Below, piece by piece: positions 1 through 57,771 of a stretch of 64,000 nt of DNA; within the stretch, counting starts at the first letter, position 1; each line of letters opens with the position of its first letter. The position numbers were made by a program, and so were the translations under genes. Source of the stretch: Terriglobia bacterium (GTDB lineage: Bacteria > Acidobacteriota > Terriglobia > 20CM-2-55-15); assembly GCA_965198225.1 (NCBI GenBank), contig CBDAOY010000004.1, positions 96,001 to 160,000 on the forward strand, written 5' to 3'. Below the pieces are notes generated by a model, which worked only from the letters and a program-made list of their open reading frames with translations, had not been told where the DNA came from and made no database searches.

Positions 1-1265
1 TTGAATACTTCCCACCGGACGAAGCCTGCACGACTACGACTGCTGAGCATTTGGCGCCAGTAACGTTCCACGGCCCGAGCGACGTGCTGCAGAGCCCGGA
101 GGTTCCCGGCAATGCCATAGTAGGCGTAGTGCCCGCGCAAGACTCGGTTCAGATTGTGCACTTGCTCCCGGACCGGCAAGTGACGCATTCGCCTCATCAC
201 GCCGCGTAGATGAGCCAGACTGCGTCGAAGTCGAGACTTCTCTGTTCGCAGTCCCACTCTAAAATTGCCTTTGCGATTACGCGTACAGTACAGGGTCATG
301 CCCAGAAAATAGATCGTCTCTGGACGTTTTCTCCCGCGCCGGACGACATCGCGCTGGGCATAGCGGCCGAATTCGACGAGCTTCGTCTTGGTCGGCTCCG
401 GAACCAGTCCAAACTTTCCCAGTCGCTTGCGCAGAACGTTCTGGAAACGAAGCGCATCGTCCCGATATTGGAAACACACGACAAAGTCGTCGATGTACCG
501 CACCAGATACGCTTCACCCTTCAGGCGTGGCCGGACCATCCGGTCAAACCACAGGTCAAGCACATAATGCAGGTACAGATTGCTCAGCAGAACGCTGATC
601 GACCCACCTTGCGGGGTTCCCTCTTCGTTCGAATGCAATTCCCCGTCTTCGAAAACGCCCGCCTTTAACCATCGTCGTATCAGACTGATGATCCGCGGAT
701 CTCCGACTCGATGCTCCACAAAGCGGAGTAGCCATCCATGGTCTAAACTCCCGAAAAAGTTCTTCAAGTCCGCCTCCAACACCCAACTCACCTTGCATCC
801 GGAAATCACCTCATGGAGGGTTGCCAGTGCATTGTGGGCGCCCAGCCCAGGCCGGCCACCAAAGGAACAGGGCAAGAAGTCCTGCTCGTAGATGGCGACC
901 AATACCTCGGCCACGCTGCGCTGAAGGGCCCGATCTTGAACACAGGGCACGCCCAGGGGACGTTTCTCCTGCTTGCCGGGCTTGGGGATATACACCCGCC
1001 GAATCGGCGGAGCGCGATATCCCTTCTGGTGAACAGACTGGAGCATTGGCTCCACCCAGACTCCGAATTCCTCCTTCGCCTCCGGTACCCTCTGACCATC
1101 ACATCCGGGAGCCGTGTTGCGGGGCACTTGACACAGGTTCTTCCACACACGCTCTCGGGTGACATGATGCGCCAGTGACGTGAACCGGAGCTTTGGCTCA
1201 CTCCGAGCTTTCGCCGCTATTCGTTCCAGTTTCGTTTCCATGACTGGTTGTTCCTCTCGTTGCAT
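1..1265 (-). CDS. ltrA: Group II intron reverse transcriptase/maturase (class E-like), runs off window edge
   Basis: Reverse complement of the 56338-57602 RT ORF (position x maps to 57603-x); GTPQGG and YIDD motifs. Confidence 0.93.
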   Translation of the reverse strand, partial: MQREEQPVMETKLERIAAKARSEPKLRFTSLAHHVTRERVWKNLCQVPRNTAPGCDGQRVPEAKEEFGVWVEPMLQSVHQKGYRAPPIRRVYIPKPGKQEKRPLGVPCVQDRALQRSVAEVLVAIYEQDFLPCSFGGRPGLGAHNALATLHEVISGCKVSWVLEADLKNFFGSLDHGWLLRFVEHRVGDPRIISLIRRWLKAGVFEDGELHSNEEGTPQGGSISVLLSNLYLHYVLDLWFDRMVRPRLKGEAYLVRYIDDFVVCFQYRDDALRFQNVLRKRLGKFGLVPEPTKTKLVEFGRYAQRDVVRRGRKRPETIYFLGMTLYCTRNRKGNFRVGLRTEKSRLRRSLAHLRGVMRRMRHLPVREQVHNLNRVLRGHYAYYGIAGNLRALQHVARAVERYWRQMLSSRSRAGFVRWEVF

Positions 1266-1367
1266 AGAGGACCGTATCCTCCCGTTGCATGGAGCTCATG
1301 TTTCCCAAGAACGAGTCCACTTCTGCTGGCCGCTTCCCCATGTGATCGGCTCTCCCGACCTCGGAGT

Positions 1368-2438
1368 GTAGAGTCGAAAGTGGTCGGGCCGATCGGCCCT
1401 TCCACCGTCCGCTCAATCAAACGGCTCGTGCGGTTTTCCCGCAAGCCGCTTTCCTCAGTTGCTCCTCGTTCGGAATTCGCTGTGTGGCGGCAGGTGGCGG
1501 CTTCGTTCGTACCGCGTTTGGGTCTTTCGCTAAGGGAACTATCCAAGTTCGCACATTCACGATATCTCCTCCACCGTCCGCTCAATCAAACGGCTCGTGC
1601 GGTTTTCCCGCAAGCCGCTTTCCTCAGTTGCTCCTCGTTCGGAATTCGCTGTGTGGCGGCAGGTGGCGGCTTCGTTCGTACCGCGTTTGGGTCTTTCGCT
1701 AAGGGAACTATCCAATTCCACGATCTCCGCGTTTCCCATCGCTCGCACATTCACGACTGAGTACGGGGACTTCCCCCTCCAACGGGCCTTTTGGACCCGC
1801 CAGCGCCGCTGCTCGAAGCAACGATCCGAGACCTTATGTTTGCCGTCTCGTTCCTGAGTACTATTCCCCGATCCGATTCCTGACACCGCGTCGGCCGGAA
1901 TTTCGCTCTCGCTTATATCCGCACCTACCGCGCAGGGCTCTAGGTCGATGTTTGTCTTCTCGGTTGCCCGCCCTTTCGTCTGCGGGTGCCACATCATCTC
2001 GACCTTACCTTCCGCTCGGACGATACCAGGCCTCCCTGGGTCACTCGCGTCTCTTCTCCACCGTGTCGCCCGCACACACCTTGGTGCGATGGGGTGGAAC
2101 CAATGCGCCTTCGCCCCAATAGTGCGGGCTCGACCATTCCCCATCTTTGGCCGACCGGTTCATCCTCGGGATGGCTCCCGTCGATTACGACCCGGTGGTT
2201 CTCCTCATGCCCTTCAGACCCCACCTCGCGGTGGGCGCCCTGCCCTCCAAAGTTTCCGTAGCTGGCTCCAGCTTTGCCTTGGCCGTATCCGGCTTTCGCC
2301 TTCGTGCCCGTTTAGGCATCTGCACTACCTGTCTACACTTCGGCCAGTGAGGCATTACCCCCACTTGTTGGATATCGACCCGTGGCCTCGGGCCGAGCGG
2401 GACTTTAACCCGCCGGAAACGCGTGCTGCCAGGCACGC
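1368..2438 (-). mobile_element. ORF-less group II intron (copy of 55332-56235) with an internal 146-bp duplication
   Basis: Starts GCGTG and ends GACTCTAC; domain V AAAGCGGCTTGCGGGAAAACCGCACGAGCCGTTT; no RT ORF. Confidence 0.85.
1401..1715. repeat. Tandem duplication 1401-1546 / 1570-1715 covering domain V
   Basis: Direct comparison; absent from the 55332-56235 copy. Confidence 0.9.
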
Positions 2439-2839
2439 ACTATCAGCCAGTCTGACTTCCGACAGGCCTTCGGGTCTTCCTCGCGTTGTTGGCTTGTCCA
2501 ACCCTACAAGCTCCGCTTGAACCTGACGGATCTCCCTTGTTCCCATGAAATCCTTGGTTGCATGCCGGCGGTACGAACCCCGGAAGCACCCCAGGGCACT
2601 TGCCATTGCGTGCCCTGCGATTCCGCCTTCCCCCTAGAGCGACAGGGTCGGCTACTTCAACCACGTTCGATTTCGGGGCTATCTTTCCGTTCACTGGTGT
2701 TCCGGCCTACTCCCTCCCTGTCTACGCTTCGCAGTGTCCGTCACCGACCACCACGCAAGACTCGGTACGTGGCTGCCGGCTAGGCTCTGCCACGGCCGCC
2801 ATCTCAGGCGACTGGATCTCATGCGCTTGCAAGGCGCAA

Positions 2840-3807
2840 CGCTCCCGGAACCCTGCGTCCTGATGCACCAGCAGCATCCGCACCCGGACATCGGCTGCCA
2901 GTCCGCTCAAGGTGTCCGATACGATCAGGCCGCTGCCGAGGTCCACGCCCGCGCCCGTCTCGGCGTCCCCGCCGTCGCGCCGCAGCCCGATCTCGACGGT
3001 CGGCGTCAGCGCCAGTCGGCCTGCGAGGCGGTAGTGCCGCGAGCCTTCGAGCCCCGTCCGGAACCGGGTGACCGTCGCCGTGGTCGCCGCCAGCCGCCCG
3101 GTCGGGCCGTCCACCGCGTCGCTTGCCGTGCCGACCCACAGGGCGTCGGCCTTGAACGCCAGCGCGAAGCCGCCCACCACCGAGTCCGCCAGATCGCCCC
3201 GCAGGCCTCCGGCCGCCATGGCCATCGACAACCCGCTCTTGAGCGTTGGTCCCCCGCCCGGCGTCAACGCCAGCGCGCCCTTGCCGTATCCGGTCACGCC
3301 CCACAGGGTGATCCGGTCGGTCACCTTGTAGCCTAGCCAAGGGTAAAGGCCCGTCACCGACGAGATTACCTCGCCGGCGTCGGCTCCCGAGTAGCCGCCC
3401 CGGCCCCGGCTGTGTGCCAGCGACAGGCCCGCCACCAGCGGCCCTCGCGCGTAGTCGGCCCCGACCATCGTCGTGCGCACGTCGCCGCCCAGCGACAGAT
3501 CGCCCTCGCGGCCAGCGAAGCGCGACTGCGCCCCCCGGCTCCAGAACGAGAGGATGCCGCCGCGCGTCTCGCGGGTGAGCGCAACGTCGGAGCCGGTCAG
3601 CAAGTCGCCGCCGCCGAGACCCATCCGGAGCAGCCCGCCGGTGTGCATCATCCCGTCGCCGGCGCCCGGCGGCTGCCCGCCGGCCAGACCGCTGAGATGG
3701 CTGAGCACGTTGAGCGCGATGTCGCGCTCCATGCCCCGTCGCAGTTCCCGGCCGGCGACCCGGCCCCGGAAGCCGGGCTCGCGGGGCGCCGCCAGCCGGG
3801 CCTCCAC
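2840..3807 (-). pseudogene. Autotransporter beta-domain protein, truncated and intron-interrupted
   Basis: Beta-barrel pattern (TTMVGADY, GLYPWLGY, EIGLRRDGGDAETGAGVDLG); last strands replaced by intron. Confidence 0.75.
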
Positions 3808-4319
3808 ATGCTCGTGTGGCGCTCACCCGAACAGGCGGCACCGGACAAACCCGGCGAGGAGGTCCGTGGCCGACGTGCCGACGCGGGGGATAAACGGCCA
3901 AAGAGCAGGGGACGTGACGGACGCCCACAGGGCGAGTTGGAACGATCTGGCCGCGGCCCCTGACGCCGTGACCCGCGGAGGAAGCCGAAGGACGGGTAAA
4001 TGGCACCACAAACATGCGGAACTGTGAATGGGGGCCGGCCCGGACGGAGCAAGGAAAGCGAGGGCTTGTGCATTGCCCAAGCGTAAAGAACCGAGAAAAT
4101 AGGGCGAGCCTGGAGCGATGCAGTGTGTTGAGGTCGTTGATCACCGCGCTCATTGGCGGGAGCCGTCCGCATTTTGACGGTGCCCCGGCTTCAACGAGCA
4201 CGGTCACAACCGCCGGAATTGTGTTTGGTACATGGGCTGGCACATTGAACGCAAGCATTGACTTGGGCATCGCGCAGTATTAATGTGATGCAATTGACAT
4301 TGAGTGACTTCGGAGTATC

Positions 4320-52399: not shown

Positions 52400-54281
52400 G
52401 TGCGCCACGACGGTGCGTAGAGGAGGCGGTCATGTAGACGCCGAATCGACACAGCCTTGCTGCACGAGAGATGAGGGCGGGCCCCTCGGACTCGGGGTGC
52501 AGGCCCAGGGTCCAAACCGCCGGATGCTGCTCGGACCAAACGGCCGGGGTGGTGAGCGAGACGGAAAAGGCGGGACAAACCCGTCAGGTGAGCGATGGGA
52601 AGACGAACGTGAGTGAACCGCTGATGACGTGTCGAAAGCGTAGGGACGCCATCGAAACCAAGCTCCAGTCGTTGGCCTGGGATGAAGCTCGGGAGGAGCC
52701 TGTTGACTGCCCGAGCGGTGGCCGGCATGAAGGCGGCGTGAGCCCATTGCAGGCTCTTGTGCGGAACGTGGGAACCTATCGCCTCGATGTTAAGGGAGAA
52801 ATCCAAGTGGAGGACCCACAAGGATGAGAATACCGATGCGAGGCGAAGGGGCGGATGGGCTTGTAGGAGCGAAGAAGCCTGGTAATGCGGGTGGAGCAAA
52901 GGGGCCCAACTCTCTGGCCAAGGACGCCGGTCAACCAGCGATGGGAGGAGCCGGTGTCTGAGGCAAAGCCTTATGTGATTCCAAAGCAACTTGTCTGGGA
53001 ATCGTACCAGCGGGTGAAGGCGAACCGCGGTGCAGCGGGCGTGGACGGTGAGTCGCTGGCGGCGTTGGAGAAGGACCTGAAGGGGAATCTCTACAAGGTC
53101 TGGAACCGGATGTCGTCGGGCTCGTACTTCCCGCCGCCCGTGCGGCTCGTTGAGATACCGAAGGATAACGGCGGCAAGCGCCCACTCGGTATTCCCACTG
53201 TTGCCGACAGAGTGGCGCAAACGGTCGTGAAGATGGTGTTCGAGCCCTTGGTGGAGCCGGTATTCCACGAGGACTCGTACGGCTATCGCCCCGGCCGGTC
53301 TGCGCTCGATGCGGTGGGAGTGGCGAGGAAGCGCTGCTGGGGCGCGGATTGGGTCATCGACCTGGACATCAAAGCCTTCTTTGATTCCATCCCGCATGAC
53401 CTCATTGAGCGCGCCGTGGCCCACCACACTGACCTTCCGTGGGTCCGTCTGTACGTTGCGCGGTGGCTTCGTGTCGCTGTGCAGCGGCCAGACGGGATCC
53501 TGGAGGAGCGGACGACGGGCACGCCGCAAGGCGGAGTCGTCAGTCCGCTGCTGGCCAACCTGTTGCTGCACTACGCGTTCGACCTCTGGATGCAAAGGAC
53601 CTTTCCGAGCGTCCAGTTCGAGCGGTATGCGGACGATGCCATCGTCCATTGCAGGAGCGAACGGCAGGCGCGAGCAGTATTGGAGGCCATTCGGGGTCGG
53701 TTCGAGCAGTGCGGTTTGGAGCTTCATCCTGTGAAGACCCGTATCGTTTACTGCAAGGACGACGACCGGCCTGGGGACTACGAACACGTCAAGTTCGACT
53801 TCCTCGGGTACACCTTCCAACCTCGGCGGGCGAAGAATCGCTGTTGGAAATTCTTCGTGAGCTTCCTACCGGCGATCAGCGCCAAGGCCGCCAAGAAGAT
53901 CCGGGCCACCATCCGCGAATGGCGGATGGCGTCCACCAGGAACAACCAGCGTCTGGAGGACTTGGCACGGCTCATCAACCCGTCGGTACGTGGCTGGATG
54001 AACTACTACGGACGGTTCTACCGGTCGAAGTGTGTTCAGGTCCTTCGCCATCTCAACGAGGCCCTCGCGGCATGGGCGCGATGGAAATACAAGCGGTTTC
54101 GGCGACGTGAGCGTGCGTCGATGCACTGGCTGGGGCGCATCGCGCGACGGGACAGGCAGCTGTTTGTCCTGTGGCAACTCGGCATCGTACCCGAGGCTGG
54201 AGAGTAGGAGCCGGATGAGGCGAGAGTTTCACGTCCGGTTCTGGGAGGGCCCGGGGGGGAAGTTCCCCCGGGCTACTCGAC
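52400..54281 (+). mobile_element. Group II intron B (class D-like), complete
   Basis: GTGCG start; domain V GAGCCGGATGAGGCGAGAGTTTCACGTCCGGTTC; end CTACTCGAC; EBS1 AGTCGT at 52667-52672. Confidence 0.92.
52954..54207 (+). CDS. ltrA: Group II intron RT/maturase (RmInt1-like)
   Basis: VKANRGAAGVDG, WNRMSSGSYFP, GTPQGG, ERYADD. Confidence 0.95.
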   Translation: MSEAKPYVIPKQLVWESYQRVKANRGAAGVDGESLAALEKDLKGNLYKVWNRMSSGSYFPPPVRLVEIPKDNGGKRPLGIPTVADRVAQTVVKMVFEPLVEPVFHEDSYGYRPGRSALDAVGVARKRCWGADWVIDLDIKAFFDSIPHDLIERAVAHHTDLPWVRLYVARWLRVAVQRPDGILEERTTGTPQGGVVSPLLANLLLHYAFDLWMQRTFPSVQFERYADDAIVHCRSERQARAVLEAIRGRFEQCGLELHPVKTRIVYCKDDDRPGDYEHVKFDFLGYTFQPRRAKNRCWKFFVSFLPAISAKAAKKIRATIREWRMASTRNNQRLEDLARLINPSVRGWMNYYGRFYRSKCVQVLRHLNEALAAWARWKYKRFRRRERASMHWLGRIARRDRQLFVLWQLGIVPEAGE

Positions 54282-54749
54282 GTGTGCCACGAGCACTGAC
54301 GGGCGCAAGTCGGGTCAGTGCGCAACTGTTTCACTGATGAGGGAGGGCCCCTCGGAGCCGGCGTGCAGGAGCCGGCTTCAAACCACCTTCGGTGGCTGTG
54401 GTTAAAAGCCATGGTCGTGAGCGCAGAAGGAAAAGGCCCGGGAAGAACCGGGTCAGGTGGCTGGCAAGAAGAGGACCGCAAGGGAATCACTGATGACGTG
54501 TCGAAAGCGTAGGGACGATGTCAGAACCGTGGGGAGTCATTACCGCGGGATCAGTTCAGACGAGAATCTGCTTACGGGCTGAGCGGCATCCGGCATAAAG
54601 GTGGCCTGAGCTTGTCGAGAGGCGGTGAAACGGAACGTGGGAACCTGAGATTCCGATGCTAACGGAGACGCCACAAGTGGAAGAACCACGAGGGCCAGAG
54701 TACGAACCATCCTGGCTCGCGGAGTCTCAGGGGCGGAATGGCCCGTAGT
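54282..54749 (+). mobile_element. Group II intron C (class D-like), 5' part up to domain III
   Basis: GTGTG start directly after intron B; shares CTGATGACGTGTCGAAAGCGTAGGGACG with B; EBS1 AGTCAT at 54535-54540. Confidence 0.85.
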
Positions 54750-55331
54750 GCGTGCCTGGCAGCACGCGTTTCCGGCGGGTTAAAGTCCCGCTCGGCCCGA
54801 GGCCACGGGTCGATATCCAACAAGTGGGGGTAATGCCTCACTGGCCGGAGTGTAGGCAGGTATGGCAAATGCCTAAACGGGCACGAAGGCGAAAGCCGGA
54901 CACGGACAAGGCAAAGCTGGAGCCACCTACGGAAACTTTGGAGGGCAGGGCGCCCACCGCGAGGTGGGGTCTGAAGGGCATGAGGAGAACCACCGGGTCG
55001 TAATCGACGGGAGCCATCCCGAGGATGAACCGGTCGGCCAAAGATGGGGAATGGTCGAGCCCGCACTATTGGGGCGAAGGCGCATTGGTTCCACCCCATC
55101 GCACCAAGGTGTGTGCGGGCGACACGGTGGGGAAGAGACGCGAGTGACCCAGGGAGGCCTGGTATCGTCCGAGCGGAAGGTAAGGTCGAGATGATGTGGC
55201 ACCCAAGGCAGACGAAAGGGCGGGCAACCGAGAAGACAAACATCGACCTAGAGCCCTGCGCGGTAGGTGCGGATATAAGCGAGAGCGAAATTCCGGCCGA
55301 CGCGGTGTCAGGAATCGGATCGGGGAATAGT
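54750..55331 (+). mobile_element. ORF-less intron, variant copy, 5' part up to its own domain III
   Basis: Paralog of ~55332-55910 with about ten differences; broken at GGAATAGT|. Confidence 0.85.
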
Positions 55332-56235
55332 GCGTGCCTGGCAGCACGCGTTTCCGGCGGGTTAAAGTCCCGCTCGGCCCGAGGCCACGGGTCGATATCC
55401 AACAAGTGGGGGTAATGCCTCACTGGCCGAAGTGTAGACAGGTAGTGCAGATGCCTAAACGGGCACGAAGGCGAAAGCCGGATACGGCCAAGGCAAAGCT
55501 GGAGCCAGCTACGGAAACTTTGGAGGGCAGGGCGCCCACCGCGAGGTGGGGTCTGAAGGGCATGAGGAGAACCACCGGGTCGTAATCGACGGGAGCCATC
55601 CCGAGGATGAACCGGTCGGCCAAAGATGGGGAATGGTCGAGCCCGCACTATTGGGGCGAAGGCGCATTGGTTCCACCCCATCGCACCAAGGTGTGTGCGG
55701 GCGACACGGTGGAGAAGAGACGCGAGTGACCCAGGGAGGCCTGGTATCGTCCGAGCGGAAGGTAAGGTCGAGATGATGTGGCACCCGCAGACGAAAGGGC
55801 GGGCAACCGAGAAGACAAACATCGACCTAGAGCCCTGCGCGGTAGGTGCGGATATAAGCGAGAGCGAAATTCCGGCCGACGCGGTGTCAGGAATCGGATC
55901 GGGGAATAGTACTCAGGAACGAGACGGCAAACATAAGGTCTCGGATCGTTGCTTCGAGCAGCGGCGCTGGCGGGTCCAAAAGGCCCGTTGGAGGGGGAAG
56001 TCCCCGTACTCAGTCGTGAATGTGCGAGCGATGGGAAACGCGGAGATATCGTGGAATTGGATAGTTCCCTTAGCGAAAGACCCAAACGCGGTACGAACGA
56101 AGCCGCCACCTGCCGCCACACAGCGAATTCCGAACGAGGAGCAACTGAGGAAAGCGGCTTGCGGGAAAACCGCACGAGCCGTTTGATTGAGCGGACGGTG
56201 GAAGGGCCGATCGGCCCGACCACTTTCGACTCTAC
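55332..56235 (+). mobile_element. ORF-less group II intron, complete (~0.9 kb)
   Basis: GCGTG start, domain V at 56151-56184, end GACTCTAC, no RT; EBS1 ACTATT at 55647-55652. Confidence 0.87.
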
Positions 56236-57771
56236 ACTCCGAGGTCGGGAGAGCCGATCACATGGGGAAGCGGCCAGCAGAAGTGGACTCGTTCTTGGGA
56301 AACATGAGCTCCATGCAACGGGAGGATACGGTCCTCTATGCAACGAGAGGAACAACCAGTCATGGAAACGAAACTGGAACGAATAGCGGCGAAAGCTCGG
56401 AGTGAGCCAAAGCTCCGGTTCACGTCACTGGCGCATCATGTCACCCGAGAGCGTGTGTGGAAGAACCTGTGTCAAGTGCCCCGCAACACGGCTCCCGGAT
56501 GTGATGGTCAGAGGGTACCGGAGGCGAAGGAGGAATTCGGAGTCTGGGTGGAGCCAATGCTCCAGTCTGTTCACCAGAAGGGATATCGCGCTCCGCCGAT
56601 TCGGCGGGTGTATATCCCCAAGCCCGGCAAGCAGGAGAAACGTCCCCTGGGCGTGCCCTGTGTTCAAGATCGGGCCCTTCAGCGCAGCGTGGCCGAGGTA
56701 TTGGTCGCCATCTACGAGCAGGACTTCTTGCCCTGTTCCTTTGGTGGCCGGCCTGGGCTGGGCGCCCACAATGCACTGGCAACCCTCCATGAGGTGATTT
56801 CCGGATGCAAGGTGAGTTGGGTGTTGGAGGCGGACTTGAAGAACTTTTTCGGGAGTTTAGACCATGGATGGCTACTCCGCTTTGTGGAGCATCGAGTCGG
56901 AGATCCGCGGATCATCAGTCTGATACGACGATGGTTAAAGGCGGGCGTTTTCGAAGACGGGGAATTGCATTCGAACGAAGAGGGAACCCCGCAAGGTGGG
57001 TCGATCAGCGTTCTGCTGAGCAATCTGTACCTGCATTATGTGCTTGACCTGTGGTTTGACCGGATGGTCCGGCCACGCCTGAAGGGTGAAGCGTATCTGG
57101 TGCGGTACATCGACGACTTTGTCGTGTGTTTCCAATATCGGGACGATGCGCTTCGTTTCCAGAACGTTCTGCGCAAGCGACTGGGAAAGTTTGGACTGGT
57201 TCCGGAGCCGACCAAGACGAAGCTCGTCGAATTCGGCCGCTATGCCCAGCGCGATGTCGTCCGGCGCGGGAGAAAACGTCCAGAGACGATCTATTTTCTG
57301 GGCATGACCCTGTACTGTACGCGTAATCGCAAAGGCAATTTTAGAGTGGGACTGCGAACAGAGAAGTCTCGACTTCGACGCAGTCTGGCTCATCTACGCG
57401 GCGTGATGAGGCGAATGCGTCACTTGCCGGTCCGGGAGCAAGTGCACAATCTGAACCGAGTCTTGCGCGGGCACTACGCCTACTATGGCATTGCCGGGAA
57501 CCTCCGGGCTCTGCAGCACGTCGCTCGGGCCGTGGAACGTTACTGGCGCCAAATGCTCAGCAGTCGTAGTCGTGCAGGCTTCGTCCGGTGGGAAGTATTC
57601 AACCGGATTCAGCTGCACTTTCCGTTACAGCGTCCCAAGTTGGCTCTCCGCTATCGGGAGTTCCAGTCTCTCGCTGTGCTGTAAATCCAATTCTGAAGAG
57701 CGCAGTGCGGGAAATCCGCACGCTGCGTTCTGTGGGAGCCGGAGGCGGGCAACTGCCTCCGGCCACCCGGT
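56236..57771 (+). mobile_element. Class E-like intron, 3' part (domain III to end)
   Basis: Resumes ACTCCGAGG; domain V GAGCGCAGTGCGGGAAATCCGCACGCTGCGTTC; end CACCCGGT. Confidence 0.85.
56338..57684 (+). CDS. ltrA: Group II intron RT/maturase (class E-like)
   Basis: RFTSLAHH, RPLGVP, GTPQGG, RYIDDF. Confidence 0.95.
   Translation: MQREEQPVMETKLERIAAKARSEPKLRFTSLAHHVTRERVWKNLCQVPRNTAPGCDGQRVPEAKEEFGVWVEPMLQSVHQKGYRAPPIRRVYIPKPGKQEKRPLGVPCVQDRALQRSVAEVLVAIYEQDFLPCSFGGRPGLGAHNALATLHEVISGCKVSWVLEADLKNFFGSLDHGWLLRFVEHRVGDPRIISLIRRWLKAGVFEDGELHSNEEGTPQGGSISVLLSNLYLHYVLDLWFDRMVRPRLKGEAYLVRYIDDFVVCFQYRDDALRFQNVLRKRLGKFGLVPEPTKTKLVEFGRYAQRDVVRRGRKRPETIYFLGMTLYCTRNRKGNFRVGLRTEKSRLRRSLAHLRGVMRRMRHLPVREQVHNLNRVLRGHYAYYGIAGNLRALQHVARAVERYWRQMLSSRSRAGFVRWEVFNRIQLHFPLQRPKLALRYREFQSLAVL

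Follow-up and report, generated by a model that had tools for sequence, protein, structure and literature searches.

A 64,000-nucleotide (nt) stretch of DNA from a Terriglobia bacterium (the window) carries, at a right locus (54750–56235, plus strand) and a left locus (2438–1368, minus strand), copies of an intron that resides within other introns. This element is very probably a group II intron of ~904 nt that has lost its open reading frame (ORF), belongs to a reverse transcriptase (RT)-encoding, endonuclease-less clade, and homes to the domain III loop N-R-U-A-G-U↓A of other introns (the arrow marks the junction). It has a complete ribozyme made up of domain I (D1) with exon-binding site 1 (EBS1), D3, a short D4, DV, and DVI. 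The site is read by pairing of EBS1 (ACUAU-N) with the last six bases of the 5′ exon, and the first base of the 3′ exon is almost always A.

The sequence GCGTGCCTGG begins in the window at 54750 after CGTAGT, at 55332 after AATAGT, and at 2438 (minus strand) after GATAGT, and each start is followed by ACTATT in a predicted GCCC/GGGC hairpin (Table 1). Both loci end with ...CTCTAC followed by ACTCC (56235↓56236; 1368↓1367). An earlier reading of the window from its letters (the original prediction) had placed three copies after these hexamers, and all of its coordinates check. It had also proposed that excision of the left copy restores GATAGT↓ACTCC, that DV and the 3′ end are intact, and that the element has no RT, and these points are borne out by the 3′ end given above, by the fold, and by the lack of an RT ORF between 54750 and 56235. 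The last 88 nt (56148–56235) fold with a minimum free energy of −46.4 kcal/mol (z = −5.5; 0/200 shuffles as good) into a canonical DV with an AGC triad, a 2-nt bulge, and a GAAAA loop, and a DVI in which A56229 is bulged, 7 nt upstream of the 3′ terminus (56235). At relaxed Rfam thresholds RF02001 gives weak matches around the ACTATT hairpin (24.9 and 24.5 bits; gathering score 32), which aligns to the corresponding hairpin of the model. The left locus is one unit with an internal duplication of ~150 nt (unit positions 720–871) spanning the D4 to DVI region, and it consequently has two tandem DV copies (1620–1588 and 1451–1419). The duplication contains a rearranged 15-nt joint (window 1368–1745, minus strand).

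The genome (6.4 Mb, 9 contigs) was scanned for further copies. The ~904-nt ORF-less unit occurs at 17 loci with 20 5′ ends, 18 of which are preceded by (A/G)TAGT. The 5′ exon hexamers are GATAGT (8), AATAGT (4), CATAGT (3), CGTAGT (2), AGTAGT (1), CGTAAT (1), and GATGGC (1), and A is the first 3′ flank base in every full-length copy. Fourteen copies lie inside D3 of other group II introns, represented by seven host sequences (H1–H6 and H8), and four lie inside another copy of the element, after the AATAGT of its own D3. The remaining two interrupt ordinary genes, both in antisense: a membrane-protein gene (L001) and a methyltransferase-like gene (L002), where the copy itself is cut on its 3′ side by an IS256-like element. 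Rfam D1–D4 matches directly upstream on the same strand assign H1, H5, and H8 to RF02005, H4 and H6 to RF02001, and H2 and H3 to RF01999. These data support the proposal that the element targets D3 across intron types. Host H6 defines the boundaries. It is present in eight copies, one occupied and seven empty, and the 300-nt upstream and downstream flanks abut directly in the empty copies. Because these seven are contiguous across the site, the element is GCGTG...CTCTAC without possible shift, and it is precisely present or absent at the ligated-exon site. RTAGTA occurs 1672 times in the genome (both strands), and 8 of the 10 distinct insertion contexts are intron D3 sites (binomial p < 1e-8 even granting 100 such sites), a bias that is therefore not due to chance.

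The target site has a common layout in every host: a J2/3-like motif (GAAGUCAGA or GGGGCGGA), seven bases, and N-R-U-A-G-U↓A. The 7-nt strand has a 7/7 complementary partner, with GAAG just before it, in H1, H4, H5, H8, and three hosts from other genomes (L015, L022, and L023). The complementary 7-mer lies 34–161 nt downstream of the site. All seven closing stems differ in sequence, so a stem closing an internal loop of AUAGUA opposite GAAG gains covariation support. This stem-loop is the last before the ORF-bearing domain in H1, H4, H6, and the RT-encoding siblings of the element, and the site is thus in D3 by definition. RUAGU is presumably the recognised consensus motif of that domain. The element's own D3 folds alike, with the stem CGGGGA/UCCCCG. 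The D3 insertions are all in the sense orientation of the host intron. A recent structural survey (PMC12306022) reports a kink-turn with internal-loop architecture in D3 of group IIC introns, which may correspond to the present loop.

Covariation with the 5′ exon identifies the ACUAUU loop as EBS1, as had been predicted from its hairpin and its complementarity to the exons. The pairs vary together within this genome and, at positions −2, −5, and −6, in metagenomes. Among the copies with ACUAUU (n = 14), position −6 is G in 8 (GATAGT or GATGGC), A in 4 (AATAGT or AGTAGT), and C in 2 (CGTAGT, unpaired). Those with ACUAUG (n = 5) follow CATAGT (3), CGTAAT (1), and GATAGT (1), and all three CATAGT-flanked copies in this genome carry ACUAUG. 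EBS1 of the degenerate inner copy at C8:159308 is not readable (coordinates outside the window are given as contig:position). Relatives in other genomes mostly have ACUAUG after C-R-TAGT, and locus L034 has ACUAUC after GATAGT. Pairing was scored in 51 metagenome copies, 15 of the 66 being left out as their hairpins were not parsed by the pattern; it is 6/6 in 37 and 5/6 in 14. The compensatory pairs in metagenomes are CATATT with AATATG or AGTATG at −2, CGTAGT with ACTACG at −5, and GATAGT with ACTATC at −6. Through a G-to-U change in the ORF-less branch, EBS1 became fully complementary to the AAUAGU of the element itself. The resulting ACUAUU variant, which invades itself because its own D3 carries AAUAGU↓A, is involved in all four self-insertions. 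The structural check that had been proposed for EBS1 and EBS2 thus supported EBS1 and found no pairing between EBS2 and intron-binding site 2 (IBS2). One EBS2 candidate was AGCCAG in D1, which complements CUGGCU (−12 to −7) of H1 and whose variant AGCCAC travels with the other EBS1 variant. It was rejected as a general EBS2: the subdomain is absent in L016, L017, L033, and L034, it lies 5′ of kappa-zeta, and other hosts mismatch. A IIC-like upstream hairpin was also rejected, as none was found just upstream of the site and the 7-nt strand pairs downstream instead.

D3 homing is, from the insertion sites in other genomes and in metagenomes, a property of the whole clade. The RT of an RT-encoding sibling (below) was used as the query against species-representative genomes and gave 44 loci, 23 of which retain the 5′ end of the family together with 6 nt or more of flank. 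Regex matches at L051:1098 and L053:817 were dropped for lack of alignment with the family, and the consensus of the flanks was read by eye. The 5′ junction ends in RTAGT at 22 of these 23 loci and in GTAGG at one. They come from 15 other assemblies labelled Terriglobia, Terriglobales, Desulfobacterales, delta-, alpha-, and gammaproteobacteria, Desulforhopalus, Nitrospinota, Ignavibacteriaceae, Neomarinimicrobiota, Geminicoccaceae, and 'bacterium'. A D1–D4 Rfam match lies directly upstream at 18/23 (7/15 loci in one scan and 11/11 in another). In one gammaproteobacterial metagenome-assembled genome (MAG), one and the same RT-encoding intron occupies five or more different hosts, which belong to three subfamilies. 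Since RT-encoding relatives use the same D3 site in other genomes, the choice of site is independent of lacking an RT. The junction RTAGT↓GYGYG was not found in Verrucomicrobia relatives with ~40% RT identity (L041–L046, L050, and L054), which were treated as outside the clade.

Metagenomes were scanned with a 21-nt D1 stretch of the window, a query unbiased as to exon. Eighty of at least 120 stretches were taken; 6 had too little upstream sequence and 8 lacked a recognisable 5′ end, leaving 66 resolved. Their 5′ exons end in RTAGT in 50 cases and in near variants in the other 16, and GA occupies −14/−13 in 49/66. Upstream sequence extended for 480 nt or more at 30 loci, and 28 of these have a same-strand host D1–D4 match directly before the element (RF02005, 11; RF02003, 7; RF01999, 6; RF02001, 4). 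The tabulation of 5′ exons from the genome and from metagenomes, which the original prediction had proposed as its check, therefore gave (A/G)TAGT in 18/20 and RTAGT in 50/66. None of the outcomes it had named as fatal was found: copies mostly outside D3, ACTATT outside the EBS1 loop, or a different splice junction.

Two intact RT-encoding copies of the intron are present in the genome (C5:501714-503866 and C6:343788-345941). They and a third, frameshifted and fragmented locus carry a 1253-nt insertion at unit position 798/804. The open frame is about 410–475 codons long, and its protein matches TIGR04416 (group II intron RT/maturase) with 392 bits and Pfam RVT_1 and GIIM; no endonuclease domain was detected in the profile search. 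The RT active-site motif is WADD in the siblings and F/Y/WADD in relatives. The sibling RNAs are ~96% identical to the ORF-less form. Twelve ORF-less copies align unbroken across one deletion junction, and copies with this junction occupy at least nine different contexts, two ordinary genes included. The ORF was thus lost once and the product then spread, which makes the element an ORF-deletion derivative of single origin from an RT-encoding intron family. The idea of a stand-alone non-autonomous element was correct in that the element is ORF-less, but it is a derivative with RT-encoding siblings in the same genome. A shared deletion junction at different sites and a cognate RT elsewhere in the genome are the marks of a trans-mobilised ORF-less intron of the TeI3 type, and loss of the ORF before the spread to at least nine contexts suggests a protein acting in trans.

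The original prediction also read the right locus as an insertion of the element into itself. The inner copy does follow the AATAGT of another copy; the locus is not an intact nested pair, however, and has the layout A-A-B, in which a 582-nt 5′ part (A1) precedes one complete 904-nt copy (A2+B) and the 325-nt 3′ part (B) of the outer copy is missing. In the window the element forms twintrons inside H1 and inside H2, not with itself. Complete self-nested pairs, A[AB]B, are found at two other places, together with a degenerate array at a non-intron site and two A-B-B arrays (Table 1). A1 is 97.9% identical to A2 and has its nearest match (98.6%) at C5:889958, where a copy occupies the paralogous H2 locus, and A2+B is 100% identical over 904 nt to C5:758799-759702. 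The match of A2+B to a distant copy and of A1 to a paralogous-locus copy favours invasion by a second copy over local duplication. A simple tandem duplication is less likely, as A1 and A2 differ at 2% and intact A[AB]B arrays exist elsewhere. The A-A-B layout would fit a nested pair in which the two tandem B parts recombined and one of them was lost. In hosts H2 and H3 the 5′ half is of the RF01999 type, whereas the 3′ half resembles or equals the one found in RF02005-type hosts; in the window host H2 it is identical to that of H1. Both hosts are probably chimeras formed by recombination between element copies.

Transcript evidence for splicing was sought in public sequencing runs. At least half of the sampled words of the window were present in 16 of the 24 listed runs, two sponge metatranscriptome runs holding 0.66 and 0.63. 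Reads were mapped to a simple H1 locus (L057; element at 1500–2403), parts of which remained uncovered, and the read contigs carry no levels, starts, or strands. One contig of RNA run X16 joins 1499 to 2404, the two halves of host D3, and skips exactly 904 nt (depth 2, side 30). No such joint was found in two further runs, presumed to be DNA although their type is unrecorded. The other joints on this locus lie outside the element, in runs of unrecorded type. These data are a weak hint that splicing occurs in vivo at the predicted junctions.

Several observations weigh against this interpretation of the element. The X16 contig is a single one of low depth and may reflect residual library DNA or a strain in which the site is empty, and the 1499–2404 joint was not found in the other RNA run, X15. 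At gathering scores Rfam detects seven group II intron pieces in the window, none within the element; the DV model RF00029 has no match on the window copy at E ≤ 1 and a sub-threshold match on a sister copy (33.4 bits; gathering score 40). The 5′ end is GCGUG rather than the canonical GUGYG. This start is shared by the copies of this genome and one Terriglobia MAG, and 12 of 14 other aligned relatives have GUGUG or GUGCG. The sibling RT ORF lacks an ATG start. Hosts H2 and H3 pair poorly across the site (best 5/7 and 6/7). No conserved or covarying partner was found for positions −7 to −12, which vary among hosts, so no EBS2/IBS2 pairing was identified, and six or seven recognised bases alone cannot account for the 1672 other RTAGTA sites being unused. 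Seven H6 copies with perfectly matching CATAGT↓A sites are empty. Finally, the copy counts are inflated by repetition of whole host-plus-element units: H1 with the element occurs six times and H2 with the element twice, with identical downstream sequence.

This repetition is what would be expected if the copies were immobile relics multiplied by duplication of hosts or segments. The window A-A-B would then be a slippage tandem duplication at TAGT microhomology, and TAGT at both ends of A would permit such an event. We consider this explanation highly improbable. One deletion junction recurs in at least nine flank contexts, the EBS1 variants match their own sites, and copies in different hosts are 99–100% identical; the divergence of A1 from A2, their separate nearest relatives, and the intact A[AB]B arrays also speak against slippage. 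The same element could alternatively reach the same site by an RNA route, through reverse splicing into the single-stranded D3 loop of the host RNA, cDNA synthesis, and recombination. The target would then be an internal loop left unpaired in an RNA that is abundant and highly structured, which would explain the preference for D3 over the 1672 RTAGTA sites without an IBS2, and all D3 insertions are sense to the host intron. That orientation is forced by IBS1 under either model, however, and both non-intron insertions are antisense to the interrupted genes, which is unexpected for reverse splicing into mRNA and fits DNA targets. The RNA route is therefore unlikely.

The original prediction further proposed that the ORF-less element borrows the RT of a neighbouring host intron in trans. 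According to this idea, the element depends on the RT of its host, and homing to D3 places it beside one that can be borrowed. In its favour, an RT/maturase is encoded downstream of the site in hosts H1/H2, H4, and H6, none of the six H1 copies is empty, and related intron proteins can mobilise ORF-less introns in Thermosynechococcus (PMC2882425). On the other side, cognate RT-encoding siblings are present in the genome, and RT-encoding members of the clade use the same site elsewhere. Hosts H3, H5, and H8 are themselves ORF-less, with DV 180–800 nt downstream. Identity between host RTs and that of the family is no more than 32% and 39%, compared to 84–100% among the cross-mobilising proteins of Thermosynechococcus (PMC2882425). 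With three of seven host types lacking an RT ORF and the host RTs this divergent, borrowing becomes quite unlikely, and a cognate RT acting in trans appears more likely.

The homing intron is thus best explained by EBS1-guided retrohoming, in which the RNA would reverse splice into DNA and be primed at replication forks. Reverse splicing into DNA with priming at replication forks has been described for endonuclease-less introns. The RT/maturase may be supplied in trans by the two intact RT-encoding siblings. Self-insertion would produce nested A[AB]B arrays, which recombination between tandem parts could trim to A-A-B, as in the window, or to A-B-B. A wider interpretation, which we regard as evenly balanced when all of its parts are taken jointly, is that this widespread and as yet undescribed bacterial clade consists of obligate 'introns of introns', or hyperparasites, with the conserved, probably kink-turn-like D3 internal loop as their natural homing site. 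The site would be common to at least four structural subfamilies and many phyla, and it would be recognised by the 6-nt EBS1 together with further reading of the J2/3-plus-stem context or of a folded single strand. Each insertion would make catalysis by the host depend on prior splicing of the guest. The ORF-less branch in this genome would have become self-targeting through the one-base change of EBS1 from G to U.

Table 1. Features of the two window loci, and nested arrays elsewhere in the genome
Feature	Coordinates	Strand	Basis or remark
Host H2 5′ part (D1 to D3 5′ strand)	54282..54749	+	RF01999 at 54339-54458, 106.6 bits; J2/3-like GGGGCGGA and 7-nt stem strand before CGTAGT
IBS1 of outer copy, CGTAGT, in host D3 internal loop	54744..54749	+	
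A1: orphan 5′ part (D1, D2, 5′ half of D3) of resident outer copy	54750..55331	+	97.9%/98.6% identities (see text)
EBS1 (ACTATT) of A1	55065..55070	+	
Element's own D3 loop, AATAGT, serving the inner copy as IBS1	55326..55331	+	6/6 complement of ACUAUU
Complete 904-nt ORF-less intron, inner copy	55332..56235	+	Identity to C5:758799-759702
EBS1 (ACTATT) of complete copy, GCCC/GGGC hairpin	55647..55652	+	Fold; covariation
D3 of complete copy: stem CGGGGA/UCCCCG closing loop AUAGUA / GGAAG	55900..56006	+	Fold
D4 junction, RT ORF deleted (1253 nt in RT-encoding siblings)	56129..56135	+	Unit positions 798/804
DV (AGC triad, 2-nt bulge, GAAAA loop)	56152..56184	+	Fold
DVI, bulged A 56229, 3′ end ...CUAC	56189..56235	+	Fold
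Host 3′ part: D3 3′ strand CGGCCAG 56271-56277, RT ORF 56338-57684, DV/DVI 57696-57771	56236..57771	+	Same as host H1 3′ part
Host H1 5′ part, ending with D3 strand CUGGCUG and loop GATAGT (2444-2439)	2439..2840	-	RF02005 at 2570-2804, 137.2 bits
ORF-less copy with ~150-nt internal duplication; EBS1 2123-2118	1368..2438	-	
Host H1 3′ part: D3 3′ strand CGGCCAG 1332-1326, then RT ORF running off the window edge	1..1367	-	
A[AB]B, intact	C6:840163-841975		
A[AB]B, intact	C5:62160-64012		
A[A'B']B, degenerate, non-intron site	C8:158737-160383		
A-B-B	C5:812868-814096		
A-B-B, truncated	C5:3834-4942		

Further observations concern the surroundings of the element. An intron with DV/DVI at 54206–54281 ends at 54281 and host H2 starts at 54282 (GTGTGCC), head to tail with no exon between them; this pair was found again at C5:889425-889960. 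H1 is inserted 7 nt after DV of an RF02003-type intron (...GGUUCGAUGAGC↓GUUGCGCC) at four loci, L008 (C6:837500-845500), C5:606xxx, C5:760xxx, and C5:812xxx, and it also occurs at two other, unrelated sites. Because H1 itself sits in RF02003-type introns, the arrays are three or four introns deep. The copy at C5:605957-606511 ends at unit position 555 and is fused to the middle of the host RT ORF, a joint that corresponds to a deletion spanning the 3′ part of the element and host D4. A fragment of ~70 nt at C9:984564-984640 (L060), starting GTGTGCTGAGCAGCGCAC, represents a second, diverged subfamily of the clade; only this 5′-terminal piece is present, placed after CATAGT in a host of the RF02005 type. 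By eye, intron bases 1–6 could pair with bases 13–18 (54750–54767) in a possible 5′-terminal hairpin that includes the 5′ splice site. The U2C change in GCGUG has its counterpart in an A-to-G change at position 17, and in relatives position 15 covaries with Y4.

RF00029 matches the genome 32 times at E ≤ 0.001, and 24 of these matches exceed the cut-off, an unusually high intron load for 6.4 Mb. Whole-genome D1–D4 matches at or above gathering number 16 for RF02005, 10 for RF02001, 4 for RF01999, and 11 for RF02003, and hosts were scored as occupied when the element lay no more than 450 nt downstream of such a match (8/16, 3/10, 3/4, and 0/11, respectively). Three unoccupied H5 relatives read CATACT (C6:296603, C8:79172, and C5:569943), and an unoccupied RF01999 intron in the window (~52400–54281) has the motif TGTAGG (52860–52867). 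Each is one base off the invaded form and may be a resistant allele or a chance variant. Another kind of intron-in-intron homing was seen in the gammaproteobacterial MAG, where a different intron (5′ end GTGTGCCACTGC) lies right after the YADD codons of another intron's RT ORF (L026:2512 and L036:3969); its exon also ends in GATAGT. A sequence of ~80 nt upstream of the non-intron insertion in L001 (about 3786–3868; C8:158522-158604) recurs at about 268 other places with 85–91% identity. The listed matches are all on contig C8, and some copies are arrayed ~130 nt apart (C8:109102-109826).

Literature was covered in the form of excerpts from PMC4424553, PMC4476101, PMC2882425, PMC7049729, PMC4649490, PMC12584367, PMC8919778, PMC7306698, PMC3552965, PMC4028801, and PMC12306022. 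No lineage that homes to D3 was found described in them, though one may have been mentioned elsewhere. The intron-in-intron insertions that they describe are in intron ORFs or D4 (Methanosarcina, Thermosynechococcus, Porphyridium, and lycophytes) or, in Trichodesmium and one lycophyte case, in D1. The nested introns of Methanosarcina acetivorans are alike in several respects according to the excerpted review (PMC4424553): group II introns home repeatedly and site-specifically into one another, the resulting arrays serve as a perpetual homing site while homologous recombination offsets their growth by deletion, and ORF-less and RT-encoding members coexist. The archaeal target, going by a title and this review, is the intron ORFs in D4 (PMC4424553), whereas the present clade uses a conserved ribozyme motif in D3 across four Rfam D1–D4 subfamilies and many bacterial phyla. 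The TeI3/TeI4 twintrons of Thermosynechococcus elongatus (Mohr et al. 2010, PMC2882425) likewise include ORF-less derivatives with common deletion break points that proliferate with proteins supplied in trans, some of them at a site conserved in a second mobile intron. Their site is in D4 of closely related introns of one family, between two ORF start codons, in contrast to the catalytic-core domain that the present element targets in several subfamilies, and the introns encode endonuclease-containing CL/IIB1 proteins (PMC2882425).

The other comparisons are to more distant systems. The intron cox1i1149g2 of Lycopodiaceae mitochondria has inserted in its own copy and in other introns; its self-insertion is in D4, however, and its other sites are given by Zumkeller et al. 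2020 (PMC7049729) as ectopic and varied, with no conserved motif used by a clade. Group IIC introns, from the portion of PMC12584367 covered, are also endonuclease-less and have very short target pairing and a specialised, structure-associated niche, but they recognise a DNA hairpin (terminator) just upstream of a short IBS1. The present element has no hairpin immediately upstream of a 3–4 nt IBS1; it has a 6-base EBS1 pairing, and its niche is another ribozyme. Inner introns of the Euglena plastid twintrons interrupt functional domains of the outer introns and require sequential splicing; they are organellar, degenerate, and diverse in position, unlike one mobile clade with one target, in the review excerpt (PMC4424553). 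Two annotation pipelines are described in the excerpted papers as excluding twintrons or missing the outer intron (PMC4028801, PMC8919778), and the lineage may have gone unnoticed for this reason. This suggests that intron censuses would undercount nested introns.

Spliceosomal introns and non-LTR retroelements presumably descend from group II introns, and a central question about the latter is how they come to occupy sites where they do no harm. Specialised niches known for group II introns include terminators, insertion sequences, start and stop codons, and ORFs within related introns. If the interpretation is correct, a clade that targets a conserved motif of the catalytic core would add a new niche, one that is renewed by every intron copy in any genome and that crosses intron classes. 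The activity of one ribozyme would then be conditional on the splicing of another. The clade would provide a natural system for ordered splicing and for target recognition by very short base pairing, and for parasite-on-parasite dynamics, of which CATACT and TGTAGG as possible resistance alleles in unoccupied hosts may be an example.

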